Shown here piece after piece: positions 5,170 through 20,898 of a stretch of DNA of 64,000 bases. Position 1 is the stretch's first letter. The number at the start of each line of letters is the position of its first letter. The position numbers were made by a program, and so were the translations under genes. The stretch comes from an uncultured Solirubrobacteraceae bacterium. GTDB lineage: Bacteria > Actinomycetota > Thermoleophilia > Solirubrobacterales > Solirubrobacteraceae. Location: assembly GCA_963807275.1 (NCBI GenBank), contig CAWDZX010000001.1, positions 1,614,724 to 1,678,723 on the forward strand, given 5' to 3'. The notes under the pieces are model-generated. The model worked only from the letters and a program-made list of their open reading frames with translations, did no database searches and was not told the origin of the DNA.

Positions 5170-5505
5170 TCAGTCGCTCGAACCGGCGCCGGCCTCGACG
5201 GCGCCCTTCAGCCGCGCGAGCCGGCCGTCCCACGCGGCCTCCGTTCGCGCGATCCACTCGCTCGCGCCGACGAGCGCGCCGCCGCGCAGGCGGTAGCGCA
5301 CCTCGCGCCCGTCCGCGGGCGCGCGCTCGACGAGACCCGCGTGGTCGAGCGCGGCGAGGTGCTTCGCGACGGCCTGGCGCGTGATCGGCAGCTCGGCGCC
5401 GAGGCGCGGCACGCTCGTCGTCCCCTCGCGCAGCAGCGCCTCGATCATCGAGCGCCGCGTCGGGTCGGCGAGCGCCGCGAAGACGGCTCCGAGCTCGTCG
5501 CTCAA
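5170..5505 (-). CDS. ArsR/SmtB-family transcriptional regulator
   Basis: TTG at 5505 overlaps the SRPBCC stop. [18 protein letters not shown]...[19 protein letters not shown] is an ArsR winged HTH; [10 protein letters not shown]-terminus is typical of the SRPBCC-linked subgroup. Confidence 0.9.
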
Positions 5506-5837
5506 GCCGCCACCACCGCGAGGCTGCCCGCACGCGCGCAGCCGGCGCCCGGCGCGAAGCTCGCCGCGAGCGTGCTCAGCGGGAAGGCCGCGGGCTCGCT
5601 CTCGGTCACGATCACGCGCGCGCCGGCGGGCGCCGCGACGATCTCGAACTCGACGCGCGTCGCGGGCTCGTCCTCGCCCCCCCACCACCAGACGAGCCTG
5701 CTCGGCGCCTCGACTACCTCGAGGTGCACCTCGCGATCGGGCTCCTGAAGCCAATCTTCGCGTCGCTCGCCGTCGACGAGCGCATCCCAGACATCCTCCG
5801 GCCTAGCCTCGATCTCGATCTCTCTGCTCGCTGGCAT
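5502..5837 (-). CDS. SRPBCC/AHSA1 (START-like) ligand-binding protein
   Basis: [16 protein letters not shown]...PSRLVWWW...TRVEFEI...GARVIVTE; coupled to the ArsR gene. Confidence 0.8.
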
Positions 5838-5856
5838 GTATGCGCCGCCTCCTTGA

Positions 5857-5900
5857 CAACCAAGTGGTTGCTATTGTCGTTTGACAACCGTCAAGTTGTC
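5857..5900. promoter_or_regulatory. Two inverted-repeat operators CAAC-N6-GTTG between SRPBCC-arsR and clpP
   Basis: CAACCAAGTGGTTG (5857-5870) and GACAACCGTCAAGTTGTC (5883-5900); TTGACAACC is directly repeated at 5853 and 5881. Confidence 0.7.
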
Positions 5901-5915
5901 GAAAGGATAGCCAAC

Positions 5916-6551
5916 ATGCCACTGGTCCCGATGGTCGTCGAGCAGAGCGCGCGCGGCGAGCGCTCGTTCGACATCTACTCACGCCTGCTCAACGAGCGAA
6001 TCGTCTTCATCGGCACGCCCGTCGACGACCAGGTCGCGAACCTCGTCGTCGCGCAGCTGTTGCACCTCGAGTCGGAGGACTCCGAGAAGGACATCTCGCT
6101 GTACGTCAATTCGCCCGGCGGCGTCGTTTACTCGGGCCTTGCGATCTACGACACGATGCAGTTCGTCAAGCCCGACGTGCAGACGATCTGCTTCGGCGTC
6201 GCGATGAGCATGGGCTCGCTGCTGCTCGCCGGTGGCGCACCCGGAAAGCGCATGGCGCTGCCGAACAGCCGGATCCTGATCCACCAGCCCTCAGGCGGCT
6301 TCCAGGGCCAAGCTGCCGACATCGAGATCCACGCGAAGGAGACGCTCGAGCTGCGCCGCCACATCGACGAGATCTACTCAAAGCACACCGGCCAGCCGCT
6401 CGAGCGCGTGCACGACGACATGGACCGCGACCGCTACTTCACGGCCGAGCAGGCGCGCGAGTACGGGCTGATCGACCGCGTGATCGCCTCGCACGAGCTG
6501 AACCGGCTGCCGACGGGCTTCGCCGGGCGCGTCGACGGTGGCGATGCTTAG
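5916..6551 (+). CDS. clpP: ATP-dependent Clp protease proteolytic subunit
   Basis: [32 protein letters not shown]-terminus; catalytic Ser (AMSMGS), His (LIHQP), Asp (DRDRYF); GAAAGGA SD upstream of ATG 5916. Confidence 0.97.
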
Positions 6552-6644: not shown

Positions 6645-7883
6645 TTAATTATTTGGATCGGTGTTCGTATCGGCAAGTGCCGCGCGCCGAGCATCGTCGA
6701 GCGTCTCGCCGGCGACGATCAGCTCGCGCGCCGCGTCGAGATCGTCTGAGCGACCGAACGTCAGCGCGGCCTTGACGACGTTGTCCTTCAGGTACCAGTT
6801 CGTGAACTTGCCGTCCTTGAGCGACCCGCGCACGATCTCCTCATCCCACTCGTATGCGGGCCCGACGTACTCGAGTTCGCCCCAGTCGGCGAAGACCGAG
6901 AAGAAGTACGGCACCTCGGTGTGCGCGACGTCCTTTCCGAGCATGTTCAGCGCGGCCGTCTTGCCGTGGTTGAACGCGACGTCCCAGTGCTCGATTCGCA
7001 CGCGCTCGCCGCCGCGGATCTCAGAGGCGAACTCGCAGATGTCGCCGGCCGCGTAGACGCCCGGCACGCTCGTCTGAAGGCGCGAGTCGCAGCGCACGCC
7101 ACCGCGCTCGCCGAGCTCGAGCCCGGCGCGCTGCGCGAGCTGAACATCGGGCGTCACGCCGGCGCCGATCACGACCGCATCGGCGTCGAGCTCGAGGCCG
7201 TTGCGCGTGACGACCTGCGCGACGCTCTCCTCACCCTCGAAACGCTCGAGCTCGTCGCTCGCGTGGACCGTCACGCCGTGCGCTTCGAGCAGCTCCTGAA
7301 AGAAGCGCCCCGCCGTCGCGCCGAAGCCACGTTCGAGCGTGTGCTCCTCCTGCATCACGAGCGTGCAGTGCTTGCCGATCAGCGTCAGCGACGCGGCGAC
7401 CTCGCACGCGATGTAGGAGCCGCCGATCAGGACGATCTCGTGCGCATCCTTGACACCCTCGCGGATCGCCTGCGAGTTGCCGAGCGTGCGCAGGTAGTGG
7501 ATCTGCTCGAGGTGGCAGCCGTCGACGTTCAGGCGGCGCACGTTCGCGCCCGTCGCGAGCAGCGCCTTGCCGAACCCGAGCTCTTCCTTGTTCGAGAGCT
7601 TCGCCGTGCTCGCGTCGAGGTCGAGCGCCGTCACGCTCGTGCGCAGCATCAGCTCGATGTTCTGCTCCTCCCACCACTCGTTCGGGCGGAAGAACGCCTC
7701 CGAGCGGTCCTCCTTGCCCTGCAGGTAACCCTTCGAGCAGTCCGGGCGGTTGTACGGCGGGTCCGGCTCGCGCCCGACGAGCGCGATCGTGCCGTCGGCG
7801 CCTTCCTCGCGCAGCCAGCGCGCGCAGTTGGCCGACGCGAGGCCGCCGCCGATCAGCAGGTAGTCGACGTTGCGCGTCGGCAT
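6645..7883 (-). CDS. FAD/NAD(P)-dependent ferredoxin-reductase-like oxidoreductase
   Basis: LLIGGGLAS FAD motif, PPYNRPDCSK, second Rossmann IGGSYIACE, TSVPGVYAAGD, EHW and PYFFS C-terminal motifs. TAAGGT -10 lies 7 nt before the ATG (leaderless). Confidence 0.9.
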   Translation of the reverse strand: MPTRNVDYLLIGGGLASANCARWLREEGADGTIALVGREPDPPYNRPDCSKGYLQGKEDRSEAFFRPNEWWEEQNIELMLRTSVTALDLDASTAKLSNKEELGFGKALLATGANVRRLNVDGCHLEQIHYLRTLGNSQAIREGVKDAHEIVLIGGSYIACEVAASLTLIGKHCTLVMQEEHTLERGFGATAGRFFQELLEAHGVTVHASDELERFEGEESVAQVVTRNGLELDADAVVIGAGVTPDVQLAQRAGLELGERGGVRCDSRLQTSVPGVYAAGDICEFASEIRGGERVRIEHWDVAFNHGKTAALNMLGKDVAHTEVPYFFSVFADWGELEYVGPAYEWDEEIVRGSLKDGKFTNWYLKDNVVKAALTFGRSDDLDAARELIVAGETLDDARRAALADTNTDPNN

Positions 7884-7952
7884 GCGCCGGACCTTACAAC
7901 GTCCAGCGCATGCCCTTGGCGCCTTACGGCCGCGACCCGCGACTGCCGACGG

Positions 7953-9068
7953 CTAGATTTTCGTGTTGAAGTCGATCGCTTCTTCGTTCAGCCCATTCGC
8001 ACTCAGTTTCAGCCCCGCTCGTTCGTAGCCGGCTTCTTTGAAGTCCATTTCGAGCACTGCTTCGGCGCCGCCGATGAAGAAGCGCGTCTTCGGCACGCCA
8101 TGGCTCTCGCTCGCCGCCCATTTGATCTTTTCGACCATTTTGTCGGGCGTTTTCAACCCGACGATCAGGTCGCCGCGCACGCTCACAGGGTCGGAGCACG
8201 AGAACGTCGTGAGCGTTTCGCCAGACGTGGCCTTCAGATCGAGCCCGACCGAAGCCTTTTCGCCCGATTTGAGTTCGGTGACGCCAAGCGTGCCCGTGAG
8301 CGGCTCGAAGCGCACTTCGCCAGGCGCCGCGCCCGCGCTCGTGCACGTGCCCGTGATCCGGCTCGAGCAGCCCGTGAATGCCATCGCGCTGACCTCGACC
8401 TGTTTCGCCGCCGAGTATTCGCCCGTCGCGCTGCCGTGCGTGCAGACGATCTGGTTGTAGCCGTAGTACCTGCGGGTCGTCCCTTCGAGCTTCATCCCCT
8501 TCGCCGCCGTCAGCGTGAAGCCGTGTTTGACGATCGGCCGCGAGCCTTCGAACCCCGGGAACCATTCGAACTCCGAGTTGCCGAACGTCGAGCGCTGTTC
8601 CGTCTGGCAGCCGCTCGCCGTAAACGACCCGTTGCCGAAGCCGAGCTTCACGCACGTGCCGAATTCCGGCGGTTGCAGGTATTGGAAGCTCGACCTTTCG
8701 CCGACTTCGCTGACACCTTCGGCCGTTTCGACCGTGACCGCGACCGTGCCCGGACCCGCAGCCGGCGGCGATACCGCCGTGAGCCCTTCCGAGTCCCTCA
8801 CCATGAACGATTTCGCCGGTGTAGAGCCGAAGTAGACCGCGATCACGCCATTGAATTCGCTACCGCGAATTTCGACATCCGTATTGCCGCTCGTGCGACC
8901 GATCGGCGGCGTCACCAACCTCACCGTCGGGGCACTCGCCGCCGCCAGCGCCGGCGACGCTGCCAGCGATCCCAATGCAAGAGCCAAGACCACGCCGGCG
9001 CGGACGATCGCGCCACCCCCGAAGTTCCCCAACCTCATCTCCGACCCCCTCCTCGCGCGGCGCTTCAC
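7953..9068 (-). CDS. Secreted IPT/TIG-domain protein with Cys-paired C-terminal beta domain
   Basis: Signal peptide (VVLALALGSLAASPALA), then IPT/TIG-like APTVRLVTPPIGRTSGNTDVEIRGSEFNGVIAVYFG...LTAVSPP. Start may be the ATG at 9038. Confidence 0.7.
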   Translation of the reverse strand: MKRRARRGSEMRLGNFGGGAIVRAGVVLALALGSLAASPALAAASAPTVRLVTPPIGRTSGNTDVEIRGSEFNGVIAVYFGSTPAKSFMVRDSEGLTAVSPPAAGPGTVAVTVETAEGVSEVGERSSFQYLQPPEFGTCVKLGFGNGSFTASGCQTEQRSTFGNSEFEWFPGFEGSRPIVKHGFTLTAAKGMKLEGTTRRYYGYNQIVCTHGSATGEYSAAKQVEVSAMAFTGCSSRITGTCTSAGAAPGEVRFEPLTGTLGVTELKSGEKASVGLDLKATSGETLTTFSCSDPVSVRGDLIVGLKTPDKMVEKIKWAASESHGVPKTRFFIGGAEAVLEMDFKEAGYERAGLKLSANGLNEEAIDFNTKI

Positions 9069-9147
9069 GCCGCTGTCACAGACCGTTTACTGATAGCCAC
9101 CGACACGGCGGAGAGTACTCCTCCGCAGGGCTCCGCGGCGTGTTGCC

Positions 9148-10320
9148 TCAGAGGCCCGGCGGATGGCGCACCGACCAGTGTGCCCAGGCCGGAATCCGAT
9201 CGAGGATGCGCCAGCGTGGGCCGTCCTCGTTGCGATTCGGACCTGTGTCCGTGCCGTTGTGGCTCGTGTCGAGCCGAAGTCCCGCGATCGTCATGAAAGT
9301 GTGATCCGCCGGGGTCGTGGTCGAGTAGATCGTCACCCACCGGCCCGGCCCCGGAAGGCCCCAGTGGAGATAGTCCTGCGCGAGTGGATTCTCGTTCACT
9401 ATTTCACCTATCGACCGGACGCCCGACCTGTAGAGCACGTAGTTGACAGTGCTCGAGCAATCCTCCTCCAGCGCGCCGCGCGGATCGGGATGACCGTCGG
9501 GTCCGTAAGGCAAACCTTGCAGCTCGTCTCCAGCCACGAGCATCGCCTGTACGACGGCCGGCACGCCGGCCGGGATCAGCGCCTGATGGCCGTCGCTCGG
9601 CGATAGCGACGCACGCGTCCCGGCGATGAACCGGACCGTCGTCGAGGTCAGCGCCGCCAGGCGCTCGTCGGCTCCCTCGGCTGCACCGCCCGGCTGGACA
9701 TAGCCGTCAACGAGCGAGACACCCGACGCGTCCGAGAGCGTCGATCCTCGATACCTGGCCGCCCAGCGCTCGACCTCGGCGACATACCAACCGGCATGGT
9801 TGTAGGCGAAGATCGCGCTTCGGTAGTTCCTCGGTGCTCCGGACCGATGCAGGTAGTTCGCCGCCGCGTAGATCGCATCCGCCGCATCCCAGCGATCGAG
9901 CTTGCCATCGCCATCTCCGTCTACCCCGTACTGAGCCCATGTCTGCGCGACGAACTGCATCGGCCCACCGGCGCCCGCCGAGTTCGTCGCGCCCTCGTGC
10001 CCGCAGGCCGGGTCGGCGTCGCGGCCGTGATCGCACTCGACCTTGCCGATGCCGGCGAGGATCGCCCAGTCCAACCCGTAGCGCGCAGCTGCTTGCTCAT
10101 ACAAGTCGAGATATACGCCAGGTATCTCCCTGCGAGCGAGCGCCGACGGTTCGGCGCTCGCCTCGCCCGTCGTCTGCTCATCGGCGCCTTCGAGGCTCGC
10201 GCCCGTGAATGCCGCCACGGCGAGCAGCCCCGCCAAGACGAGCAGCGTCGCCGCGGATCCTGCGATCTTCGCCGCACTGCCGATCCGGGCGCGAGGCGCC
10301 GCGAGCGAGCCTGCACTCAC
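9148..10320 (-). CDS. Bifunctional peptidoglycan hydrolase: lytic transglycosylase (SLT) plus NlpC/P60-like domain (VirB1/CwlT/Orf14 analogue)
   Basis: N-terminal TM anchor; WAILAGIGKVECDHG...AGAGGPMQF...TW...AIYAAANYL SLT motif; C-terminal EDCSSTVNYVL...HTFMTIAGLRLDT Cys-His dyad. GTGA overlap with the upstream gene. Confidence 0.85.
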   Translation of the reverse strand: MSAGSLAAPRARIGSAAKIAGSAATLLVLAGLLAVAAFTGASLEGADEQTTGEASAEPSALARREIPGVYLDLYEQAAARYGLDWAILAGIGKVECDHGRDADPACGHEGATNSAGAGGPMQFVAQTWAQYGVDGDGDGKLDRWDAADAIYAAANYLHRSGAPRNYRSAIFAYNHAGWYVAEVERWAARYRGSTLSDASGVSLVDGYVQPGGAAEGADERLAALTSTTVRFIAGTRASLSPSDGHQALIPAGVPAVVQAMLVAGDELQGLPYGPDGHPDPRGALEEDCSSTVNYVLYRSGVRSIGEIVNENPLAQDYLHWGLPGPGRWVTIYSTTTPADHTFMTIAGLRLDTSHNGTDTGPNRNEDGPRWRILDRIPAWAHWSVRHPPGL

Positions 10321-12989
10321 GGCAGGCCTTCGCCGAGCTGTCGTTTGCGTTTGGCCGCGACCTCGCGTGCATCTCTCATCACGATTGATTCCGACGGCCG
10401 CCGAGGACCGGGACGGTGCTCGTGCTCGTCACGGCCACGCGATCGAGCTGGCGCGTTCCCCGGCTCACGCTCGGTCCCGTGCGCATCGACCGCCGAGAGC
10501 CCACTGCGAAAGACCGTGGCCTGCTCGCTGCGCAACGCCAGCTCGCGGTCGATCTGCGTCCGCGCAGTTCGCGCCTCCTGGGGGTCGAGCCTTTCGTACT
10601 CGCGGCGTCCGTAGCCCGCAAGACCGGCGAGCGCCGCGTAGCTCCGTAGCGGCCCCGCGCGTTCCCGCTCGCCGTCGCTCGCCGGCAGTTGCGCCTGTGC
10701 ATCGAGAAAGCGCTCGAGCCGCTGCCGTGCCGCCGCTGGAGCGGACCCGAGATCGCGAGGCCGATCGGCGTCGGCGCGCGCATGCTCGTCCTCGCGACGC
10801 TCCAGGCCTTCAGAGCGTGTCGTGCCGTTCTCTTCGATGCGCTGGACTCGCCCTGCCAGACTCGCAGCGCGGCGAACGTTGCCAACCGCAAGCGCACGCG
10901 CACGCTGGCTTCTCAGCGACTCGAGCCGACCCGCAACCGCCGCCGGACGAGTGGCTTCGTTCGCCGGCTCTGGAGCAAACCCGCGTGCCGAGCGCAATCC
11001 GGCGGGCGTCATCCGTGCGAGCCTGCCTTTCAGCTCGGCACCCGGGGACTCGAGTCCCGGAGCGCGCCGATTCCGGCGGCCGTGACCGGACCCGCCTCGA
11101 CTGCGAAGCTCCGGCGTGTCTTTCGCGAGCCGCTTCCTCGCCGCCTGCGCGCCGTCTAGCACTTTCCTGCGCGCCGCGAACACGTCGTTCGCCTGCCTCG
11201 CGATCGTGTGACGCCGGACAGACGGCTCCCGAGAGTGTCCGCCGCTCGCCAGCTGCAGCGCTTGATGTCGCTGCAGGAACGCACCCCACCAGAACGCGGA
11301 CATCAGCAGCCACTGCGTCCACCAACCGAGCGCTTCCAGATCGGCCAAGATCCCGAGGATCGCGAGGATCGCACCGAGCAGGAACGAGAACAGCAACTTC
11401 GAGACGACCGCTGCGAGCAGCTTTGCAGCCCACTTGCGAAAGACCGCCTGCCCTGCTTCGCCGAGCGCCGGAGCGAGCACGACCGCCGGCGCGAGCATCA
11501 GATAGAGCAAGCTGAAAAGCGCCGAAGTCAGCAGCCGCAGCGCGACGAAACCGAGCAGCAGCAGCATCCCCAGCGCACCCGCGACGATCAGCAGCAGCCC
11601 CCCGACCCTGGCCCACGTGCCGTGGTTCGTGCGGAACTCGGCCTGCGCCGCCGTTGGCCCGCGACAACTCGTCGCATCGTCGCTCTGGCAGATCGCTCGC
11701 AGCAGCGACTTCGGGTCGTTGATCGAGTTGCGCGCCGGCCCGTTTGCCGGGAGCGCGAGGAAGATCGCACCGTTCGTCTGCGCCGCCCGCAGCAAACGCG
11801 CGCTGTGCTCGAGCGCCTTCGCTTCAGCGCTTTCGGCTCGCGTGCATTGCGCAAGCGCCGAACCCCTCGGCTTGCAGTCGACTTCGGTCAGCTCGGCACT
11901 CGCGATCGCGAGTGCCGATGAGCGCAATGCCGGGTCGAGTCTCGCCGGGTTCCTGCACCAGCCGACATCGCCGAACTCCAGATAGCACCACGGAACTTCG
12001 ACGACTGCGGCAAAGACAGTCCCCATGCTGTCGGCGAGCGCCCGGTCGGCTTCCACGGGCGTCCCGCGCGCCGTCACCGCGAGCGTCCCGAGACTCGCCT
12101 GGTTGGCCCATGTCCCGAGCGCACCGATCGTGCCGGCCGGGTTGAGCATCACCCAGCTGCCCGCGGCAGTCATCGCCAGCGCGACGAGCGCCTGCCCGAG
12201 ACTCTCGGCCACGCGTCGCCGCACGAGCCCGTGATAGGCACACAGCACGGCGCCCACCGAAAGCACGCACGCGAGCCATGGGACGGTGAACGCGGCCTGC
12301 ATCTGGCGCAGGCCGGTGGCGAGCCCGAGCCTGACCGATCCGCTGTCGAGCAGGTCGATCGTGAAGCACCACTCGAGCATCACGACGAGCGCGTGCGCCG
12401 CCCAAACGAGCGCCATCCAGAGCGGCGTGACGAATAGATCCTGAACGGTCGAGAGCAGCTCACCCGAGCCGAACGGGACGAGCCCCGTGTCGATGTGCAC
12501 ATCGATGCCGAAGTTGCCCGTCGGTGCGGCCGCGGCGATGAAGCCGGACGTTTCGCAGTTCTGCTTGCTCGGAGCCGAGAGCTCGACGCTCGACGCGCGT
12601 CGAGCGCACAGCGGGCTGCCGAGCCCGTTGCTCACGAGCGGGTCCGTTTCGCCCTGCGGCAAAGCACCGGTGTCCGCTTCCTCCCCTCCCGCAGCCGGCC
12701 CGCCGGCACCTGTCAGGAGTGGTGCACTGCCAGGTGCCCTGTCCGCCCCAGAGCCCGAGGGTGCCGGTAACGCCGAAGCAGGCGCATCGGCGCGCCGTGT
12801 GGCGTTTGCCCGAGCACCGTCCCGCGCGATAGGTGCGCGCCCAGGCGACGGCGTGCCTGCTCGCGCTCGGTGCGCTGCGACGCTTGCGCCGCTCGCATGT
12901 GAGCACGCGAGCGCGAGCAGGCCGAGAGCCGTTGGCAGCACCAGCGCCGCGCGCATGCCATGGAGCACACTGCGAGACGTTCTGCTCAC
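10317..12989 (-). CDS. Polytopic membrane protein of the conjugation module (VirB6/ConG/Orf15-like)
   Basis: About 8 hydrophobic helices, Cys-rich extracytoplasmic loops and a long Arg-rich cytoplasmic tail; position between VirB4 and the hydrolase matches MPF_FA gene order. Confidence 0.7.
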   Translation of the reverse strand: MSRTSRSVLHGMRAALVLPTALGLLALACSHASGASVAAHRARAGTPSPGRAPIARDGARANATRRADAPASALPAPSGSGADRAPGSAPLLTGAGGPAAGGEEADTGALPQGETDPLVSNGLGSPLCARRASSVELSAPSKQNCETSGFIAAAAPTGNFGIDVHIDTGLVPFGSGELLSTVQDLFVTPLWMALVWAAHALVVMLEWCFTIDLLDSGSVRLGLATGLRQMQAAFTVPWLACVLSVGAVLCAYHGLVRRRVAESLGQALVALAMTAAGSWVMLNPAGTIGALGTWANQASLGTLAVTARGTPVEADRALADSMGTVFAAVVEVPWCYLEFGDVGWCRNPARLDPALRSSALAIASAELTEVDCKPRGSALAQCTRAESAEAKALEHSARLLRAAQTNGAIFLALPANGPARNSINDPKSLLRAICQSDDATSCRGPTAAQAEFRTNHGTWARVGGLLLIVAGALGMLLLLGFVALRLLTSALFSLLYLMLAPAVVLAPALGEAGQAVFRKWAAKLLAAVVSKLLFSFLLGAILAILGILADLEALGWWTQWLLMSAFWWGAFLQRHQALQLASGGHSREPSVRRHTIARQANDVFAARRKVLDGAQAARKRLAKDTPELRSRGGSGHGRRNRRAPGLESPGAELKGRLARMTPAGLRSARGFAPEPANEATRPAAVAGRLESLRSQRARALAVGNVRRAASLAGRVQRIEENGTTRSEGLERREDEHARADADRPRDLGSAPAAARQRLERFLDAQAQLPASDGERERAGPLRSYAALAGLAGYGRREYERLDPQEARTARTQIDRELALRSEQATVFRSGLSAVDAHGTEREPGNAPARSRGRDEHEHRPGPRRPSESIVMRDAREVAAKRKRQLGEGLP

Positions 12990-15439
12990 ACCCGGCGCGG
13001 TGACGTCGAGAGCGCCTGCAACAGCGAAGGCACTACGACGTCCACCTGGATCGCCTCGATGCGCCCGCGATGATCTCGGAACAGACAGCGCCCAGCCTCC
13101 AACTCGAGCAGGCTCTGTCGCAGACGGCCACTTTCGTGATCGAGCCCGAGCAACGCGAGCGCGCGGCCCGCCTCAGCCTCCGAGCGCATGCCGAAGACGA
13201 ACGTAGCGCCGAGCAGGTTCTCGAGCGACTCGCGCTCCCCCATCAACGTGTCTGTGACGAGCTGTGTGCTGATGATCGGCACCGCCAGCTCCGAGCGCCC
13301 CATGCGCTGCAACGACGCCAGCAGGCTGCGGCCGGCCGGGTCGCCGAGCAGTCGCCAGCCCTCGTCGAACGAGAACAGCTTCAGCCGCTCGCGCTCGGTG
13401 CTCATCAGGTGCATCGCGAACATCGCAATCAAGCGGACGATCTGCTCGCCGATCCGCTCCGCCTGCGAGTACTCGGCGCGTGAGGTGCCGGGCTCCGGGC
13501 CCGGCAGATCGCGGATCGGCAGGTACGTCACTTGCCGGTGCCCGACGGCCGGCAGCGAAACTGCCGGGTCGGCGAACCCGAGCTGCGTCAGCCCCGAGCG
13601 CGCGTACACCTCGAGCGCTCGGCCTACCTGCGCGTCGACCGCGTCTCCCTCGCACAGCGCTCGCACGACCTCCAGGCATGTCGGCGTCGCCGCCTTTGCG
13701 AGCACGCGGTCGACCGCCGCGATGACTGCCGTCTCCCAGGCCGGCTCCGCCCGAGCCGGCAACAGGTCACGCAGGAACGAGACGGCCACATCCTGGCGCA
13801 GATGCGCAGGAGCTACACGTAGCGGATCGAGCACGCCGCGCAGCGACGGGTCCGGGCGCAGCGTGACGCACTCGGCATGCGGCGCGACGTCGTCGAGCAG
13901 ATGGAAGCGGTGATCGCCCTTCGGATCGCAATCGATCACACGCGCCCCGAGCAGGAACCCCTCGTACTTGAGCTTTTGATCGAGCGTCGTCTTGCCCGAT
14001 CCGAGTGCGCCGACGCTGAGGATCGCCGTGTTTCGATCGCTGTCCGACCCCTCGCGGAGGTTGAACCTGACCGGTCGCTGCGAGCGCGTCAGCGTGTGAC
14101 CGAGGTAGAAGCCGCTGCGCGATCCGGCCTCGTGCGTAGCGGTCGGCATCATCGCCGCTATCTGCTCCACCGTCAGCGTGTCGTCATAGCCGATCACACG
14201 CGTGCGCTGGCCCGGGAGCTGCTGCAGGAAGAGCTCGAGCTGATCGCCGAGCGGCCGATGCAGGCGGATGTCGCCGTAAGCGCGCCTGCACATCTCGACA
14301 CGCCGCTCGAGCTCCTGCTCGCTGCTCGCTGCCACGGCGAGCGCCAGCGAGGCGCGCATCAGCGGTGGTCGGCTCGATGCCTGCAGGTACGTCAGCAGGT
14401 CGCGCGCTTCGTGCGTTCGCGCATAGCCGCGATCGGTTACGCCCTGCTCGCCATCGGACTCCGCGCGCACGATCTGATCGGCATCCTGGATGCGCCTTCG
14501 CGCAAGGCGCAGAGCGAGCTCGTTTGGCAAGAAGCGCGCGTTGAGCGACAGGTCGATCGCAAACGGAAGCTCTTCGGGCGGCGCGAACATGAGCTCCACA
14601 CGCGCGCCCGGGAACTCGCAGCGGTCGGGCAGCGCGCCAAGAACGAGGTGCGCCTGCCAGCTCGTGCCTTGCTCGGACTCGACCCGCAGTGAGCGCCGGC
14701 GGTGCTCGATATACGAGTTGCACCACCGCATCACATCGCCCTCGAGCGGCGCCAGCACGGCCTCGCCGTTGCGCTCGAACAACAGCGCGCGCGGCTCGTG
14801 CAGCCCGTCCACATGAGGCTCGGCAAGACCGCGGCAGAATGCGCGTCGCACGAGCCACTGAAGCTCGACGCCGCGCGCCTGGCGGACCGGCAGAAAGTCC
14901 GCCAGCCGCGCATGAGCTCGATCGGCACGCACGCGAGCGCGCTCCAGCTCCGATGCCTTCAGCAGACCGCTCGCGCGCAACGAGAAGGCAGCGCCCAGCG
15001 CCCGGCGCCAGTCTGCCGCTCCACGCTCTGCGAGCTTCGATACGTAGCCGGCGACATCGCGTTCGGGCTCGCGCAGGCTGACGAGCACGAACAGTGACGG
15101 TCGGGCCTCACCGAGAGCCGCCAGCCGCGCCGCGTGCTGTGCCACGTAAGTCCGCCGTGCCTGTGAATGGGGCTCGCTGAACGGGCTCGCGCTCGCCTCG
15201 GCTTCCAGCTCGCGCTCGTACTCCCCGTCGCCGAGCCCAGGAGCAGAGCCGACCCTCAGAATCTGCACATCGGCCTCGAGCGCCTCGAGTGCTCCTAGCA
15301 GCGCGAGCATTCGTGCGCGCTTTCCGTCCTCGCCAAGCCACTGATAGGAGGAGACCTCGATCACAAACGCCGCCCAAGCGTCGGCGTGATCCTCCGCGAA
15401 CACGCAGTTGCCGTACGTGAAGCTGATCGGAGCGCCCAT
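12986..15439 (-). CDS. virB4: VirB4-family conjugation ATPase (ConE/TcpF/Orf16-like)
   Basis: 817 aa; Walker A GALGSGKT, IDCDPKGD, Walker B KLFSFDEGW, RMGRSELAVPIISTQ, GRCLFRDHRGRIEAIQVD C-terminus. Confidence 0.9.
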   Translation of the reverse strand: MGAPISFTYGNCVFAEDHADAWAAFVIEVSSYQWLGEDGKRARMLALLGALEALEADVQILRVGSAPGLGDGEYERELEAEASASPFSEPHSQARRTYVAQHAARLAALGEARPSLFVLVSLREPERDVAGYVSKLAERGAADWRRALGAAFSLRASGLLKASELERARVRADRAHARLADFLPVRQARGVELQWLVRRAFCRGLAEPHVDGLHEPRALLFERNGEAVLAPLEGDVMRWCNSYIEHRRRSLRVESEQGTSWQAHLVLGALPDRCEFPGARVELMFAPPEELPFAIDLSLNARFLPNELALRLARRRIQDADQIVRAESDGEQGVTDRGYARTHEARDLLTYLQASSRPPLMRASLALAVAASSEQELERRVEMCRRAYGDIRLHRPLGDQLELFLQQLPGQRTRVIGYDDTLTVEQIAAMMPTATHEAGSRSGFYLGHTLTRSQRPVRFNLREGSDSDRNTAILSVGALGSGKTTLDQKLKYEGFLLGARVIDCDPKGDHRFHLLDDVAPHAECVTLRPDPSLRGVLDPLRVAPAHLRQDVAVSFLRDLLPARAEPAWETAVIAAVDRVLAKAATPTCLEVVRALCEGDAVDAQVGRALEVYARSGLTQLGFADPAVSLPAVGHRQVTYLPIRDLPGPEPGTSRAEYSQAERIGEQIVRLIAMFAMHLMSTERERLKLFSFDEGWRLLGDPAGRSLLASLQRMGRSELAVPIISTQLVTDTLMGERESLENLLGATFVFGMRSEAEAGRALALLGLDHESGRLRQSLLELEAGRCLFRDHRGRIEAIQVDVVVPSLLQALSTSPRRV

Positions 15440-15440
15440 C

Positions 15441-16052
15441 TCAGCCCACGCGCAGGCGCGTTGCGCGCTCCAGGACGACCACCTCGGCTCGCCCCGTCGC
15501 CGGCGCGTCCGGAATCGCGCTCACCCTCAGATGGGGACGCATACCGAGCCACACGAGCGGGCCGCGAGCGGCCCGTCGCTCGTGCGCGACCCCAGCCAGC
15601 ATTGCGCCCGGACCGGTGTAGTGCAGACGCCGGCCGCGCTCCGATCCGTCCGGGAGGATCAGCAAGGAGTCCGGATGCCAGCACTCGCCCGGTCGTGTCC
15701 CGGTCCTCGCGCGACCCGCAGCGGTCCCGAGTCGGGCGACTCTCCGCGGGCCGCAGCGAAAGCGCAGCAGTGCGCGGACGGCAAGATGAAACGGCCTGCC
15801 CTCGAGACGAACGACGGTCAGCAGCGCAGCGACGAGCGCAGGCAGTGCCACGTCGCGCGCGTACCAAGGCGCCGTTCTTGCCGCGATGCCCGCGACGGGC
15901 AAGTGCGATGTGACCACGGCACCGCCGAGCAGAACGAGGAAGTAGACGAGGCCGCGCAAAGGAACGCCACCCGGATTGAGGCGGATGCGATCGATCCGGT
16001 AGATCCTTCGCTCGAGGTCGAACACGTGCCGGTATGAGCGGATCTCCATCAC
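15441..16052 (-). CDS. tcpE: TcpE-family (VirB3-like) conjugation membrane protein
   Basis: IRSYRHVFDLERRIYRID...GVPLRGLVYF is the TcpE/Orf17 N-terminal signature; two TM helices; immediately upstream of virB4. Confidence 0.8.
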   Translation of the reverse strand: MMEIRSYRHVFDLERRIYRIDRIRLNPGGVPLRGLVYFLVLLGGAVVTSHLPVAGIAARTAPWYARDVALPALVAALLTVVRLEGRPFHLAVRALLRFRCGPRRVARLGTAAGRARTGTRPGECWHPDSLLILPDGSERGRRLHYTGPGAMLAGVAHERRAARGPLVWLGMRPHLRVSAIPDAPATGRAEVVVLERATRLRVG

Positions 16053-16459
16053 TGGCTCCCGAACAGCGAGGCGACCGTGTCACGCAGCAGGCTCACGCCG
16101 GCCGGCGTCGCCAGCAGCACCGACACGATCCCTACGGCGAACACGCCGGCTGCCTCCTTGAAGTCGCGCCGGAACGCGAGCACGGTCGCGGCGACGGCGA
16201 AGGCCAGCCCGATCAGGCTCATCGCGACGGCGCGTCCGGTGTTGCCTGCCTTCGATGCGGCCGCTTCGAGCGAGCTGACCGCGTTTTCGGAGGACGGCGC
16301 GCGTTCACCGCGGGCGGCGTGCGATGTCGGGCTCACCACGGCCGCCAGGGCGACCGAAGCGCCGGGGGCAAGCGCGACGACAACTGCCAGGAGCACTGCG
16401 AGCACGGCCGGCAACACCGATCGCCGCTGCGCGCAAGAACATCGAGCAGCCCGACTCAT
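16049..16459 (-). CDS. Small 2-3 TM conjugation protein (TcpD/ConC/Orf19-like)
   Basis: ATG at 16459 overlaps the TcpC stop (ATGA). AGNTGRAVAMSLIGLAFAVAATVLAFRRDFKEAAGVFAVGIV resembles the TcpD-type hairpin, and the position matches. Confidence 0.65.
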   Translation of the reverse strand: MSRAARCSCAQRRSVLPAVLAVLLAVVVALAPGASVALAAVVSPTSHAARGERAPSSENAVSSLEAAASKAGNTGRAVAMSLIGLAFAVAATVLAFRRDFKEAAGVFAVGIVSVLLATPAGVSLLRDTVASLFGSQ

Positions 16460-17292
16460 CCGCGCGAGTCCATCTGGATCGCCGAGATCTCCCAACGGCC
16501 CTCGACATCGGCGACGTCGAGTTCGTAGCCGAGCGTGTACCGCACGTTCCGAGCGTCGTGCGCCTGCACGATCGCGAGCACCGAGCGCCGATCGGTCGAC
16601 CAGGTCAGCCGCTGCATCGATTCCAGCGTCAGACCCAACTCCGGAACGGCGATCGGAGCGTGACTCGACAGGTCTGCCGCAAGCTCTTCGGGTGCCGCGG
16701 CGAGGTAGTTGCGAAGCCCGCGCTCGACGACTGCGGCCAGCGCCCGATCCTCTACATCGTCCGCCGGCGCAGGGCCCTGCGCCGGCCCGGATTGTGGCGC
16801 GCCGACGAATGCCGGGTAGCCGGCGAGCGCGAGGCTTCCGTCCTTCTCGCGCTCGACCTCGACGGTCAAGTAGAGAAGGCCGGCGGCGTCGGTCTGAGCG
16901 GCGACCGTGTAGACCCGCATCCCCGTGCGCTCCGTGCGAGCTTGAACGACTTCGGCCCAGAGCACGTGCTGCGCTCCGCTCGGCGGCAGCACGATTCCGG
17001 CGCCACCCGCGAACGCAGTGCCGATCATCGGGGCGAGCGACTGCGCGCTGAGCTGCGGCTGCGACGCATCCCAGGTCAAATAGCGGCGAGTGAAGAGCGT
17101 CGCGTAGCCTTCGGCCGCTGAATCGCTCGGCGGCGAGACGGGTGCGACGATCGCCTGCCGTCGGACCCGAGGAGGGTCCACGGCAAAGCGCGCGCTGGCA
17201 AGCAGGCCGGCGACGCATGTCGCATAGAGCAGATAGCGGGGCAAGCGCCGCGCCAACCGCAGCCGCCACATCGGACGCGCGGCGATCGCCAC
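16456..17292 (-). CDS. tcpC: Conjugative transposon protein TcpC (VirB8-like, two NTF2-like domains); start uncertain
   Basis: N-terminal TM, then YATLFTRRYLTWD...YTVAAQT...YLTVEV...LAGYPAFVG and a second repeat ending YTLGYEL...GRWEISAI. Confidence 0.8.
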   Translation of the reverse strand: MAIAARPMWRLRLARRLPRYLLYATCVAGLLASARFAVDPPRVRRQAIVAPVSPPSDSAAEGYATLFTRRYLTWDASQPQLSAQSLAPMIGTAFAGGAGIVLPPSGAQHVLWAEVVQARTERTGMRVYTVAAQTDAAGLLYLTVEVEREKDGSLALAGYPAFVGAPQSGPAQGPAPADDVEDRALAAVVERGLRNYLAAAPEELAADLSSHAPIAVPELGLTLESMQRLTWSTDRRSVLAIVQAHDARNVRYTLGYELDVADVEGRWEISAIQMDSRG

Positions 17293-17335
17293 AGTCGCGC
17301 TCCCTGGCCGGGCCGCTTCGGTGACTGCAGTTTGC

Positions 17336-17905
17336 TCAGCGCTCAAAGCCGAACTCCGCGGACCGCGGGCGCACCGAAGCCTCAGTCGAATTCGCCACCT
17401 CTGTGCGAGCGACCTCGTCGCGACCGGCCCGGGCTGCAGCAGGGCGACCCACTGCACCTTCGTCTCGCTGCAGTCGCTTTGGTGGCGCCTGGGACCCATC
17501 CGATCCCGCACGCCCGCGTTTGAGATCGGCCTGACGTCCGCCTCGCCGCGATTGACGCGCGAGCGCACGGGGAAGCCCCGGCCTGCTCAGCGATCGAGCG
17601 CTTGCGCTGGTTACACGAGCCGTCCCAGGGGCGACGCGCGACAGCGCGGTGCGTCGCCGCAAACCGCCTGCGTGCCGAGGCGCATCGAGTGCGAGGACGA
17701 CGACCACAGCGCCTGCCGCCCCGACCAGCATCGCCACACCCGCCGCCCGCCGCGCGCCGCGCATCCGCGGGCGGTCGAGCGAGTCTGTGCTTAGAGGGTC
17801 GCGCTCACCGACAACGGCGGGCTCGCCGCCGGCGAAGAAGCCGTCCTCGGCGAAGAGCTCGTTCGGCGAATAGACGCGGTAGCGCTCGCGTGTCGGAATG
17901 CGCAT
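17336..17905 (-). CDS. Hypothetical single-TM protein of the conjugation-like operon
   Basis: ORF with a charged N-terminus (RERYRVYSPNELF), one TM (AAGVAMLVGAAGAVVVVLAL) and C-terminal AEFGFER; co-oriented and adjacent to tcpC. Confidence 0.55.
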   Translation of the reverse strand: MRIPTRERYRVYSPNELFAEDGFFAGGEPAVVGERDPLSTDSLDRPRMRGARRAAGVAMLVGAAGAVVVVLALDAPRHAGGLRRRTALSRVAPGTARVTSASARSLSRPGLPRALARQSRRGGRQADLKRGRAGSDGSQAPPKRLQRDEGAVGRPAAARAGRDEVARTEVANSTEASVRPRSAEFGFER

Positions 17906-18065
17906 CGCTCAGCTCTCCGTTCGCGCCGCGTCGTCGCAGCCCCCAGCCACGCAAGCGGCCGAGAGCCGAGTTGGGAGAAACCCGGCCCCCGACCGCATGC
18001 GGGCGGATCGAGATCGCCGCGTCGTCGTTCGCTCAACCGACGGCCGGCGCCTCGTCAGGACGGGC

Positions 18066-18749
18066 CTATGTGTGGGGGGTGGCATGGTCATAGGTCGGTC
18101 CTGACATCTCTTCCGACGCGTGCTCGTCCACCGGGACGCCCGATTCGGCGATCTGCATCAACGTCCGCAATCTGAGCCGCGCGCGCTGGGCGACCTTGCG
18201 GTACTTCTCGCGGGACCAGCCCGTGCGCGCGCAGAACTCGGCACATGCCTCGCCGGCGAGCTGCGAACCCAGTACGAGCCGTTGATCTGCGGAAAGTCGT
18301 GCGACGAGACTCCCGATCGTGCGCAGCTCGTGGCGAAGCAACACGACCGTCTCGACATCCGCGGCGCGATCGACGAGTTCGATGCGTGCTTCCGCGGCGC
18401 CTCCCAGCATGACGGCCTCCTCGAGCGCTGCCTGCATCGGGCTGCGGCCGCCGAGCGCGCGCCTGCGATCGCGGACGCGCGAGAGGAAGCGCAACTCGAG
18501 CGCGTTTGCAATGTGCAAAGCGCTGCTGAAGCCGGCACCTTGCCGGACCTGCGCAAGCAGCTCGAAAGTCGCTTGGCTGTAGGCGTCCTCGAGATCCTCT
18601 CGCCGCAGGCGGAAGCGATTCACACGCAAGAGCAACTCGCGTCGGGCGTGTGAAACGAGCGCGACCTCTTCGAGCAGATCGCGTAACCGTCGGCCGGCCG
18701 CGCGCCAGCCCTCGCGAGGCGCTCGTTTTTGCACACATCGGGTAGACAC
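18066..18749 (-). CDS. ECF-like sigma-70 factor (region 2 + region 4) heading the conjugation-like cluster
   Basis: EDLEDAYSQATFELL is region-2-like; LSADQRLVL...FCARTGWSREKYRKVAQRARLRLR is a region-4 HTH. Start uncertain. Confidence 0.6.
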   Translation of the reverse strand: MSTRCVQKRAPREGWRAAGRRLRDLLEEVALVSHARRELLLRVNRFRLRREDLEDAYSQATFELLAQVRQGAGFSSALHIANALELRFLSRVRDRRRALGGRSPMQAALEEAVMLGGAAEARIELVDRAADVETVVLLRHELRTIGSLVARLSADQRLVLGSQLAGEACAEFCARTGWSREKYRKVAQRARLRLRTLMQIAESGVPVDEHASEEMSGPTYDHATPHT

Positions 18750-18844: not shown

Positions 18845-19798
18845 ATGAGCATCACCGACCGCCTCCACGCGATCGATCGCCGCCAGCAGCAGACGCCTGG
18901 CGTGCGCTTCATCGCAGCCGTCTACAAGAAGTTCGCTGACGACCAGGCCGGTCAACTCGCAGCGCTGATCGCGTACTACGCGTTCGTCTCGATCTTCCCG
19001 CTGCTGCTCGCGTTCGTGACGATTCTCGGCTTCGTGCTCGAAGGCCATCCTGACGACCGTGAAAAAATCCTCCACGGCACGCTCGGGCAGTTCCCGATCC
19101 TCTCCGAACACCTCACGTTGAGCTCGCTCAAAGGCAGCGGCGTCGCGCTCGCGATCGGTATCGTCGGCGCTCTGCTCGCCGGGATGGGCGTGACGAGCGC
19201 GGCACAGAACGCGTTCAACCGGATCTGGCACGTGCCGTTCAAGGACCGGCCTAACTTCATCTTCTCGCGGCTGCGAAGCCTCGCCGTGCTCGCGATCCTC
19301 GGCACGCTGACGATCGTCTCGACGGCGGCAGCGGGCTTCGTCGGCGCGAGCTCGCACGGCGCGCTTGCGGTGATCGCCGGCGTGCTCGTCGCGTTCGCCG
19401 TCAACGTCGCGCTGTTCATGACCGCCTTCACACTGCTCACGGCGGCCGATGTGAGCTGGCGCGAATACCTCCCGGGCGTGATCGTCGCCGCGATTCTCTG
19501 GCAGCTCTTGCAACACCTCGGCGGCTTCTACGTCGACCATTCGCTAAAGCACACACAGGCGCTGTACGGCATCTTCGCGCTCGTGCTCGGCCTGCTCGCG
19601 TGGCTCTACCTCGGCGCGCAGCTCGTCATCTTCGCGGCCGAGGTCAACGTCGTCCGTGTCCGCAAGCTGTGGCCGCGCAGCTTCCTCTCCGATCCGCTGC
19701 TCGACGCCGACCGGCGCGCGCTGACTTCGTCGGCAGAGGTCGAGGAACGTGTCGAGCAGGAGAACGTCGAGGTCAGCTTCGACGATCCCTCCAAGTAA
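18845..19798 (+). CDS. YihY/virulence factor BrkB family membrane protein
   Basis: AALIAYYAFVSIFPLLL, AFNRIW, PGVIVAAILWQLL, YGIFALVLGLLAWLYLGAQLVIFAAEVN motifs. Confidence 0.92.
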   Translation: MSITDRLHAIDRRQQQTPGVRFIAAVYKKFADDQAGQLAALIAYYAFVSIFPLLLAFVTILGFVLEGHPDDREKILHGTLGQFPILSEHLTLSSLKGSGVALAIGIVGALLAGMGVTSAAQNAFNRIWHVPFKDRPNFIFSRLRSLAVLAILGTLTIVSTAAAGFVGASSHGALAVIAGVLVAFAVNVALFMTAFTLLTAADVSWREYLPGVIVAAILWQLLQHLGGFYVDHSLKHTQALYGIFALVLGLLAWLYLGAQLVIFAAEVNVVRVRKLWPRSFLSDPLLDADRRALTSSAEVEERVEQENVEVSFDDPSK

Positions 19799-19839
19799 CC
19801 AACGCGCGCGGCGGGTGCGAAACAACGGACGACGAACTG

Positions 19840-19869
19840 TTGACACTGTGTCGCTGGCGCGAGTACGTT
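19840..19869 (+). promoter_or_regulatory. Housekeeping sigma (SigA/HrdB-type) promoter of the lipase gene
   Basis: TTGACA-N18-TACGTT. Confidence 0.55.
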
Positions 19870-19956
19870 CGCTCTGAGGGTTGCATGGGGCCTAAGCCCG
19901 AGCGCGGGAGGCTCGGAGGTCCATCGCGGCCGAAAACACAGGAGTCAGGGGATCGG

Positions 19957-20898
19957 ATGTCGAGAATGAGATCGCTGCTGCTCGCAGTACTGCTGGTCGT
20001 CGCCGTCGGTGCCGTCGCGAGCACAAACGCGAGCGCAAGCCTTTACGTGCCGTACGGCAGCGGAGCAGTAGTCGAAGCCGCGTGGAACGAGACGTGGAAC
20101 CCCACAGCGCTGTCAGGTGGCAACAACAACTGCAAACCGACCGCCGCACACCCCTATCCGGTCGTGCTCGTGCACGCGACGTTCGCCGACGAGGGATCCA
20201 ACTGGGTCACGCTCGCGCCGCTGCTCGCGAACAACGGCTACTGCGTCTACTCGTTCAACTACGGCAAGACGATTCTCTCGGGGCTGCTCGGCAGCATCGA
20301 CGGTCTTGGCAACATCGAACACTCCGCCGAAGAACTGAGCTCGTTTGTCAGCGCCGTACTCAGCAAAACGGGCGCGTCGAAAGTCGACATGGTCGGCCAC
20401 TCGCAGGGCGGCATGATGCCGAATTACTACATCAAGTTCCTCGGTGGCGCGAGCAAGGTTCACACGCTGATCGCCCTCGCGCCGAGCAACCACGGCACGA
20501 CCGTCAGCGGGCTGACGACACTGATCGAAAAGTTCCCGTTTGCGACGCTGCTCGTGCCGACGTTCCTCGACGTGATCGGCGCTCCTTCGCTGCCGCAACA
20601 GGAGTCCGGCTCCGCGTTCGAGAAAAAGCTGTTCAGCGGCGGCGATACGGTTGCGGGACCGCGCTACGTCGTCATCGAGACGACGCACGACGAGGTCGTC
20701 ACGCCCTACACGAACGCCTTCCTCAGCGGGTCGAGCGTCACGAACATCACGATCCAGAACCAATGCCCGAAAGATCCCGTCGCTCACGTCGGCATGTTCG
20801 AGGACTCGCCGTCGCTGCAGAACGTGCTCAATCAGCTGAGCGCGAGCCCGAGCGGGTCGTTCTCGGCTGCTTGCTCGAACTACGGGTTGGGGGCTTAG
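19957..20898 (+). CDS. Secreted lipase/esterase (lipase class 2, alpha/beta hydrolase)
   Basis: Signal peptide; HPYPVVLVHATF, nucleophile elbow VGHSQGG, APSNHGTT, DEVVTP (Asp), VAHVGM (His). Confidence 0.9.
   Translation: MSRMRSLLLAVLLVVAVGAVASTNASASLYVPYGSGAVVEAAWNETWNPTALSGGNNNCKPTAAHPYPVVLVHATFADEGSNWVTLAPLLANNGYCVYSFNYGKTILSGLLGSIDGLGNIEHSAEELSSFVSAVLSKTGASKVDMVGHSQGGMMPNYYIKFLGGASKVHTLIALAPSNHGTTVSGLTTLIEKFPFATLLVPTFLDVIGAPSLPQQESGSAFEKKLFSGGDTVAGPRYVVIETTHDEVVTPYTNAFLSGSSVTNITIQNQCPKDPVAHVGMFEDSPSLQNVLNQLSASPSGSFSAACSNYGLGA

Follow-up and report, generated by a model that had tools for sequence, protein, structure and literature searches.

Introduction

Conjugation machines normally belong to plasmids and to integrative and conjugative elements (ICEs). 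The type IV secretion systems (T4SSs) of the MPF_FA class include the Tcp system of pCW3 (TcpC-D-E-F-G-H), the Con system of ICEBs1 (ConB-C-D-E-G and CwlT) and Tn916, whose orf7 is a precedent for a sigma-like regulator. Here, we describe an operon with the gene order and parts of these systems on the chromosome of an uncultured soil bacterium of the Solirubrobacteraceae (order Solirubrobacterales). It lies in a stretch of 64,000 nucleotides (contig CAWDZX010000001.1, positions 1,614,724 to 1,678,723), which we call the window. The parts common to the operon and to MPF_FA systems are a VirB8-like TcpC, small membrane proteins and a VirB4/TcpF ATPase, with probable counterparts of TcpE, the VirB6-like protein and the bifunctional wall hydrolase. 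The relationship is distant, the nearest plasmid copies of the window's VirB4 (from Bacillus plasmids with TcpE neighbours, Nocardiopsis and Nonomuraea) being only 24-31% identical to it.

On balance, we consider the operon to be one half, the mating pore, of a conjugation system of the Gram-positive type (MPF_FA/FATA-like), and this system appears to derive from an ICE and to have been fixed without an integrase and split over two loci in the ancestor of the genus. The gene content, the fixation at two loci, the purifying selection and the homology to a complete ICE on which this view builds are direct observations. The genome that holds the window (G000; 3.10 Mb, 2 contigs, 69.7% GC) was compared with 36 genomes of the same genus and 24 genomes from other families of the order.

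An intact channel operon with its own sigma-like gene

The minus-strand block at 9148-18749 holds seven co-oriented genes and a sigma-like gene, all intact and with zero frameshifts, as called by GC3 frame analysis and ORF listing. Five gene junctions overlap or abut at their start and stop codons (GTGA, GTGA, TGAGATG, GTGATG and ATGA), making this a translationally coupled operon. The initial annotation, made from the letters of the window, had proposed an intact conjugation-channel operon of this composition, and the analysis confirmed it. All operon features below are on the minus strand.

The VirB4/TcpF-type conjugation ATPase (12986..15439, 817 aa) matches AAA_10 (3.1e-45) and the NCBIfam model ATPase_TcpF (2.1e-53), carries Walker A and B motifs (GALGSGKT and FSFDEGW), and is the sole AAA_10 copy above the family cut-off in its genome; the Walker A motif is kept in 79/79 orthologues. 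About ten genus genomes, G000 not among them, also carry a distant second VirB4 paralogue of 35-40% identity, divided between two neighbouring ORFs (residues about 4-410 and 416-815; for example, G015:C31:140706-143106 and G030:C1:303945-306337).

The TcpC/ConB-type (VirB8-like) bitopic protein (16456..17274, 272 aa) has an N-terminal transmembrane segment (TM) and most likely starts at 17274, which is M99 of the long ORF, rather than at 17568. It reaches 26.2 bits against PF12642, just below the cut-off of 27 and covering profile positions 1-230 of 231, and 21 of 23 orthologues match the family (best 9.5e-12); a PDB profile search with this protein gave zero matches. Similarly, the TcpE/ConD-like membrane protein (15441..16052, 203 aa, two TMs) scores 18.7 bits against PF12648, whose gathering score is 29.9, and 19 of 23 orthologues match (best 1.7e-6). 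The VirB6/TcpH/ConG-like polytopic protein (10317..12989, 890 aa) has about 6 TMs and a long charged C-terminal tail, is 42-55% identical in relatives and matches the NCBIfam CD3337/EF1877 mobilome membrane protein at 7.1e-10, below that model's cut-off.

The last gene (9148..10320) encodes a membrane-anchored cell-wall hydrolase, in which an MltB/SLT lytic transglycosylase domain is followed by a C-terminal Cys-His domain. The transglycosylase half of the proposed SLT and NlpC/P60 pair is certain (SLT_2 2.1e-13, SLT 1.1e-5, PDB match to Slt35/MltB at 1.4e-6). The C-terminal half gave no family match and no match in a PDB profile search, and its AlphaFold2 (AF2) model is poor, with pLDDT below 50 over residues 263-390; the NlpC/P60-like assignment for this half comes from an invariant D287-C288-S289-S290 and H340, a D-C-S-S...H motif.

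The 136-aa membrane protein (16049..16459), delimited with a GC3 frame plot, has a signal-like TM and two C-terminal TMs. Its gene overlaps that of TcpC through ATGA, and the protein is 67-94% identical in relatives. It has no family match, and the label 'TcpD-like' that it had been given reflects topology only, by which it may be TcpD/VirB2-like. Upstream of TcpC, the gene annotated as 'hypothetical' (17336..17905) proved to be a real one. It encodes a single-pass membrane protein of 189 aa with one TM, hypervariable apart from an invariant C-terminal motif, EFGFER; EFGFE[RQH] closes the longest ORF found here in about 55 of 71 relatives. This protein evolves so fast that tblastn recovers only 4 of 80 loci, yet the one TM and the EFGFER C-terminus are kept.

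The first gene of the block (18066..18749) encodes a putative divergent extracytoplasmic function (ECF)-like sigma factor of 227 aa with a conserved N-terminus, MSTRC, and is present in 71/71 relatives whose contig extends to it. The window copy had been called ECF-like; it has no Pfam match at E up to 5, and two of 23 orthologues match Sigma70_r4_2 or Sigma70_r2, weakly. The top match in a PDB profile search is an ECF sigma factor (E 0.39), and the NCBIfam sigma70-ECF model gives E 0.081. Its AF2 model (pLDDT 79.7) forms two helical bundles, and the top 50 Foldseek matches in PDB are almost all sigma factors (SigL, SigE, SigH, AlgU) aligned over their full length, with weak scores (E 2.6e-3 or weaker, TM 0.25-0.38) and a probability of 0.97-1.0 for the ECF-type matches in the top 10. 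The sigma identity is thus supported at the level of the fold, with weak E-values.

A second locus holds a coupling protein, MOB_C relaxase genes and SSB

The initial annotation saw no type IV coupling protein (T4CP), relaxase or integrase. For the window this stands: whole-genome family searches, in which the MOBT (Rep_trans), MOBP, MOBF and MOBQ families were not included, placed none of the three within the 64 kb. It does not stand for the genome, which has a T4CP and MOB_C genes about 790 kb from the operon, at C1:825.8-835.4 kb, adjoining hrcA-dnaJ. The T4CP came to light through a weak FtsK-family match in the whole-genome family search. PF01580 matches above the cut-off in this genome are only FtsK (C1:1.17 Mb) and an EccC-like protein (C1:1.25 Mb); weak FtsK-family matches at C1:486 kb and 1011 kb were considered as T4CPs and rejected as PilT-like ATPases, judged from sequence.

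The T4CP (C1:832544-834166, 540 aa) is of the TraD/VirD4 type, with two N-terminal TMs and the Walker A and B motifs GATGSGKT and VVIDEF. It exceeds the cut-offs of TrwB_AAD_bind (43.1 bits, 3.4e-11; cut-off 20.5), TraG-D_C (30.9 bits, 2.9e-7; cut-off 22) and T4SS-DNA_transf (24.2 bits; cut-off 20.1), matches NCBIfam SXT_TraD at 1.1e-29, and was found in 34 of the 36 genus genomes. Beside it lies a small MOB_C relaxase gene (C1:834163-834869) encoding a winged helix-turn-helix (wHTH) and a PD-(D/E)XK domain with the motif HRPDL...EVELTIK; its match to NCBIfam MobC_subf (1.1e-5) is below the cut-off. Another gene of the locus (C1:826988-830800) encodes a protein of 1270 aa, RelaxL1270, with TMs at its N-terminus, a P-loop like that of TraD and, at the C-terminus, a MOB_C (Replic_Relax) domain that scores 51-54 bits against PF13814 (cut-off 25.3). 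We found no description of this architecture. PF13814 corresponds to the CONJscan class MOB_C, whose members partner with VirD4-type coupling proteins (PMC5357655); TraX of pAD1 is an example of their PD-(D/E)XK fold and N-terminal wHTH (PMC12857230, PMC3424549).

The remaining genes of the locus encode a TetR_N+MarR regulator, a 339-aa ORF and SSB (1.6e-30), followed by maoC, hrcA and dnaJ. The locus is syntenic in all 10 same-genus genomes sampled, eight of which have RelaxL1270, and it is under purifying selection (dN/dS 0.20-0.30 for T4CP, 0.21-0.32 for MOB_C, 0.10-0.24 for RelaxL1270 and 0.06-0.31 for SSB). Elsewhere in the genome, a third, frame-broken MOB_C-like remnant adjoins lexA (C1:1712660-1713317), about 34 kb past the end of the window.

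Homologues of both loci are united in an ICE from another family

The genome G060 belongs to a different family of the order and has homologues of the two loci joined in a single contiguous cluster (L143 and L144). Its mobility and DNA-processing genes encode a tyrosine integrase (2e-36), Xis (HTH_17), T4CP, full-length MOB_C and SSB, and its channel genes encode SLT, VirB6-like, VirB4, TcpE, the small protein, TcpC and a membrane protein whose last residues are REFGP, the positional analogue of the 189-aa protein. The sigma factor of this cluster is a canonical ECF (r2 1.3e-8, r4_2 2.2e-8), and ArdC together with C5-methylase and EcoRV-like cargo is also present. By its gene content, we take the cluster to be a true ICE of the same family.

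VirB4 of this ICE is 41-42% identical, and its T4CP 43-44% identical, to the proteins of the window's genus, and TcpC, the small protein, TcpE, the VirB6-like protein, the SLT hydrolase, SSB, the ECF sigma factor and MOB_C are homologous as well. Whereas everything in the ICE is contiguous and flanked by the tyrosine integrase, Xis, ArdC and restriction-modification cargo, the window's genus lacks the integrase and Xis, has the set split over two loci, and has in addition the 1270-aa MOB_C fusion protein and the TetR/MarR regulator. Because both halves are contiguous in the ICE, the copy inherited by the window's genus would be one that had been immobilised and split.

Across the genus, the operon keeps one chromosomal address and is under purifying selection

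The synteny comparison suggested with the initial annotation, done on 19 targeted genus genomes over 20 kb and on 80 further loci, showed the flanks of the operon to be constant in the genus. The gene order MFS-HxlR-Lon-YihY-[sigma ... SLT]-oxidoreductase-g04-g03-g02-g01 holds in 19/19 genomes, and the same address was found in about 70 of the 80 further loci, which are all those with a contig long enough. Of the 36 same-genus genomes, 32 have VirB4 orthologues of 66-83% identity, and one more, G008, has no more than a paralogue of 38% identity; orthologues of about 40-44% identity are present in five of the 24 genomes from other families.

The proposed dN/dS calculation (Nei-Gojobori, 12 close pairs) gave 0.07-0.25 for the operon genes: 0.18 for sigma, 0.11 for TcpC, 0.07 for the small protein, 0.25 for TcpE, 0.08 for VirB4, 0.22 for the VirB6-like protein and 0.13 for SLT. 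The flanks Lon (0.06), oxidoreductase (0.16) and YihY (0.23) lie at a like level, and the operon is accordingly under purifying selection comparable to that on its neighbours. Vertical descent of VirB4 was assessed through distance correlations in nine genomes with both loci, with rho of 0.77 against the unlinked DnaJ, 0.55 against T4CP and 0.90 against TcpC; the DnaJ value, from nine taxa, is suggestive at best of a fit to vertical descent.

Losses occur, in a minority. virB4 is full-length in 21 of the 36 genus genomes, ambiguous in four (contig breaks or frameshifts) and decayed in two (G019, G033); the whole operon is deleted in two (G008, G012), and in two the locus was not assembled, Lon being missing too. 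The deletions left scars between YihY and the oxidoreductase in which the N-terminal part of sigma is fused to SLT residues 296-390, the last 95 codons (L150 in G008, 5488-6342; L151 in G012, 16332-16790). In the remaining five (G017, G025, G026, G029, G031), an insert of 3-16 kb divides virB4, in four cases at a shared codon (about residue 691-694): L145 (G017) 8274-13751, L146 (G029) 7805-12181, L147 (G031) 8705-11869, L148 (G026) and L149 (G025). The three inserts examined (G017, G029, G031) have a serine recombinase of roughly 480 aa adjoining the 3' piece of virB4; those of G017 and G029 have a MOB_C gene in addition, and that of G017 also has a T4CP-like gene. They have the look of mobilisable elements whose target is the gene for the channel ATPase, and they resemble the streptococcal IME_Class_8, which likewise pairs a serine recombinase with MOB_C (PMC5357655). 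Repeated loss and interruption show that the system is dispensable, as expected of a conjugation-type function rather than of a core organelle.

The variable presence and insertion site expected of an ICE were not seen; the flanks are constant, and deletion scars sit at the same address where the operon is gone. Searches of G000, which did not extend to att sites, found neither an integrase (Phage_integrase) nor a large serine recombinase closer than 100 kb to either locus. The judgement that this is not an ordinary ICE therefore held up, given one chromosomal address across the genus, no integrase nearby and purifying selection. Partner genes just outside the window, an integrase or decay had been named as signs to the contrary; the partners proved to be 790 kb off and the integrase missing from the surrounding 100 kb, while decay in a minority was found among the 34 assessable genus genomes as the two deletions, two decayed copies and five interrupted copies.

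The neighbourhood itself is less uniform. The IPT/TIG-domain gene at 7953-9068, in the gap between hydrolase and oxidoreductase, had been taken for an ordinary neighbour, wrongly: it is missing there in 80/80 relatives and marks an insertion specific to this strain. Two other neighbours, lipase (19600-20898) and ClpP (5724-6551), are variable among relatives. A lower-GC stretch (about 5-41 kb of the window) was considered as the mark of an island and rejected, as it also holds ClpP, Lon and other core genes.

A structured element precedes the first T4SS gene

The non-coding stretch of 160 nt between the sigma-like gene and the 189-aa gene is conserved and contains a structured element (17947..18053, minus strand) with two hairpins, hairpin 1 at 18015-18049 and hairpin 2 at 17955-17996, the latter with a 16-bp stem. 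In an alignment of 28 orthologues, 32 pairs are formed with 95.7% of cells paired, and 13 pairs show compensatory double changes; none of 500 shuffles was as good, and slid controls reached 31-52%. G-U pairs far exceed A-C cells, which marks the structure as specific to the sense strand of the operon. The element belongs to no Rfam family and has no second copy in G000 or at the T4CP/MOB_C loci. Most simply, it would be an RNA leader or attenuator; alternatively, it could be a hairpin of the type found at an origin of transfer (oriT).

Discussion

By analogy, the two loci would work together with DNA as their substrate, because both sets are contiguous in the related ICE and because of the established roles of these families. 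Judging from the sequences, the system is probably still moving DNA, either chromosome, small mobilisable elements or both. The MOB_C nuclease would nick an oriT, chromosomal or borne on an integrative and mobilisable element (IME), and the coupling protein would pass the single strand to a VirB4-energised channel of TcpC, TcpE, the VirB6-like protein and the small membrane proteins. The SLT hydrolase would open the cell wall, and expression would be gated by the operon's ECF-like sigma factor and structured leader. Lacking excision machinery, the system would carry chromosomal DNA (Hfr-like), small mobilisable elements or both. Among the functions that the initial annotation had floated, 'chromosomal DNA exchange' and 'helper for elements elsewhere' are consequently the best candidates, and protein delivery or cell-junction formation are less likely because T4CP, MOB_C and SSB are present at the second locus and contiguous with T4SS genes in the related ICE.

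Several observations weigh against a split, ICE-derived system that still moves DNA. No FtsK/TcpA/ConQ-type coupling protein, canonical for MPF_FA, accompanies the channel in the PF01580 genome search, and no oriT was identified. Of the conserved 7- and 8-mers upstream of sigma, the operon, T4CP, RelaxL1270 and TetR/MarR, none is common to both loci, and the two loci are not strictly co-lost: G008 has an intact T4CP though its operon is deleted. virB4 is lost, decayed or interrupted in about a quarter of the 34 assessable genomes. Lon, HrcA and MaoC are too conserved to give a distance signal and were uninformative on vertical descent, and flank correlations are weak or noisy. Finally, the small MOB_C is frameshifted in the G000 assembly, with its wHTH and nuclease halves in different frames and the break at their junction (C1:~834,430) in the GC-rich run GCGGCGGCGCGC. 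Only G000 shows this break; nine other genus genomes have the gene intact, as a single ORF of roughly 235 aa. The frameshift may have arisen in the assembly, or the gene may truly be a pseudogene.

Other explanations were considered. A channel domesticated for a non-DNA job (protein delivery, cell-cell contact or killing), with the distant T4CP/MOB_C locus an unrelated fixed relic, would fit the finding that no DNA-transfer genes lie beside the operon in 64 kb (a search from which MOBT, MOBP, MOBF and MOBQ were left out), as well as the hypervariable surface-type protein, the long VirB6-like tail and the retention of T4CP without the operon in G008, and the relaxase-less T4SS of Patescibacteria offers a precedent (PMC12102498). 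We nonetheless find it unlikely, since the genus conserves T4CP, MOB_C and SSB in synteny and under purifying selection, the ICE of G060 has them in one contiguous cluster with the same T4SS genes, and no candidate effector genes are conserved beside the operon. Still less plausible is that the operon is an inert relic, left by an ancient ICE after loss of the integrase and now in slow decay; we would be surprised if this were so. It is consistent with the missing integrase in the window and within 100 kb of either locus, the scars in G008 and G012, the decayed virB4 of G019 and G033 and the frameshifted MOB_C of G000, but not with seven genes and a sigma gene that are intact with overlapping junctions, dN/dS of 0.07-0.25 over the 12 close pairs as in the housekeeping flanks, Walker A intact in 79/79 orthologues and a non-coding leader maintained by compensatory changes. 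The Neisseria gonococcal genetic island (GGI) exports chromosomal single-stranded DNA using a relaxase and a T4CP. GGI TraI is covered in PMC6736028. A machine for DNA release or uptake (GGI-like or Helicobacter ComB-like) instead of cell-to-cell conjugation would likewise be a chromosomal T4SS with relaxase, T4CP and SSB and without mobile-element functions. The sequence, however, offers nothing that separates release or uptake from conjugation, and ComB-type uptake does without the relaxase and T4CP that are present here, so that we rate this, too, as quite improbable.

Two further possibilities concern who benefits. The resident machine might serve mainly as a shared helper for small IMEs that encode no channel themselves but do encode a serine recombinase, MOB_C and, in some cases, a T4CP. 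Such elements do occur in relatives, inserted in virB4 at residue 691-694 in four genus genomes, with a layout matching IME_Class_8 (PMC5357655). Yet benefit to a parasite alone hardly explains why more than 80 species conserve the system vertically and under purifying selection, the elements interrupt the very gene that they would depend on, and G000 has no such element, its only large serine recombinase lying at 2.91 Mb; a predominantly helper role is thus rather doubtful. It is conceivable, though we hold it only tentatively, that the lineage maintains a host-encoded 'sex' apparatus, in which chromosomal DNA would be moved from an oriT at a constant position, perhaps the hairpin element that heads the operon, the genes would be spread and restored by homologous recombination rather than by site-specific integration, and the dedicated sigma factor and the leader would switch the machine on. 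A conjugation system inherited from an ICE and held at two loci remains, on balance, the explanation that we favour.

Comparison with known systems

If this explanation is correct, a host lineage is keeping conjugation for itself, as a complete immobilised set at two chromosomal sites in more than 80 species, which bears on gene exchange among abundant uncultured soil Actinobacteria. In literature searches, we came across no account of this system from Thermoleophilia or Solirubrobacterales. The dedicated sigma factor, the covarying leader structure and the unusual T4CP-like/MOB_C fusion protein provide experimental handles.

Unlike the MPF_FA systems that it otherwise resembles, the window's system has neither an FtsK/TcpA-type coupling protein nor an integrase (MOBT/TcpM-type relaxases, the canonical relaxase partners in MPF_FA systems, were outside the search); its partners are a TraD/VirD4-type T4CP and MOB_C, 790 kb away, and the operon is chromosomally fixed across the genus. 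In this it recalls the relaxase-less T4SS of Patescibacteria, where a monoderm-type channel has also become a vertically inherited chromosomal feature of a lineage (PMC12102498). In contrast to that T4SS, the window's genus retains a conserved coupling protein and relaxase domains, so that loss of DNA function is not implied, and the system is dispensable in a minority of species. A T4SS with no relaxase in view is therefore not the same as a relaxase-less, repurposed one, as partner genes can sit hundreds of kilobases away.

On the side of DNA processing, the MOB_C relaxases TraX of pAD1, MobC of CloDF13 and those of IME_Class_8 likewise combine a wHTH and a PD-(D/E)XK domain with a VirD4-type coupling protein (PMC5357655, PMC12857230). 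The resident MOB_C copies differ from them in being chromosomal, without a recombinase and unlinked to the channel, and in that one is fused to a large membrane/P-loop protein. The same outcome as we propose here, host-fixed machinery that moves chromosomal DNA within a lineage, is represented by Streptomyces TraB and by distributive conjugal transfer (DCT/ESX) in Mycobacterium smegmatis (PMC12857230). Their machinery is unrelated to that of the window: TraB is an FtsK-like pump for double-stranded DNA and DCT relies on ESX/type VII, whereas the genus described here has a VirB4-type T4SS with a relaxase and a T4CP.

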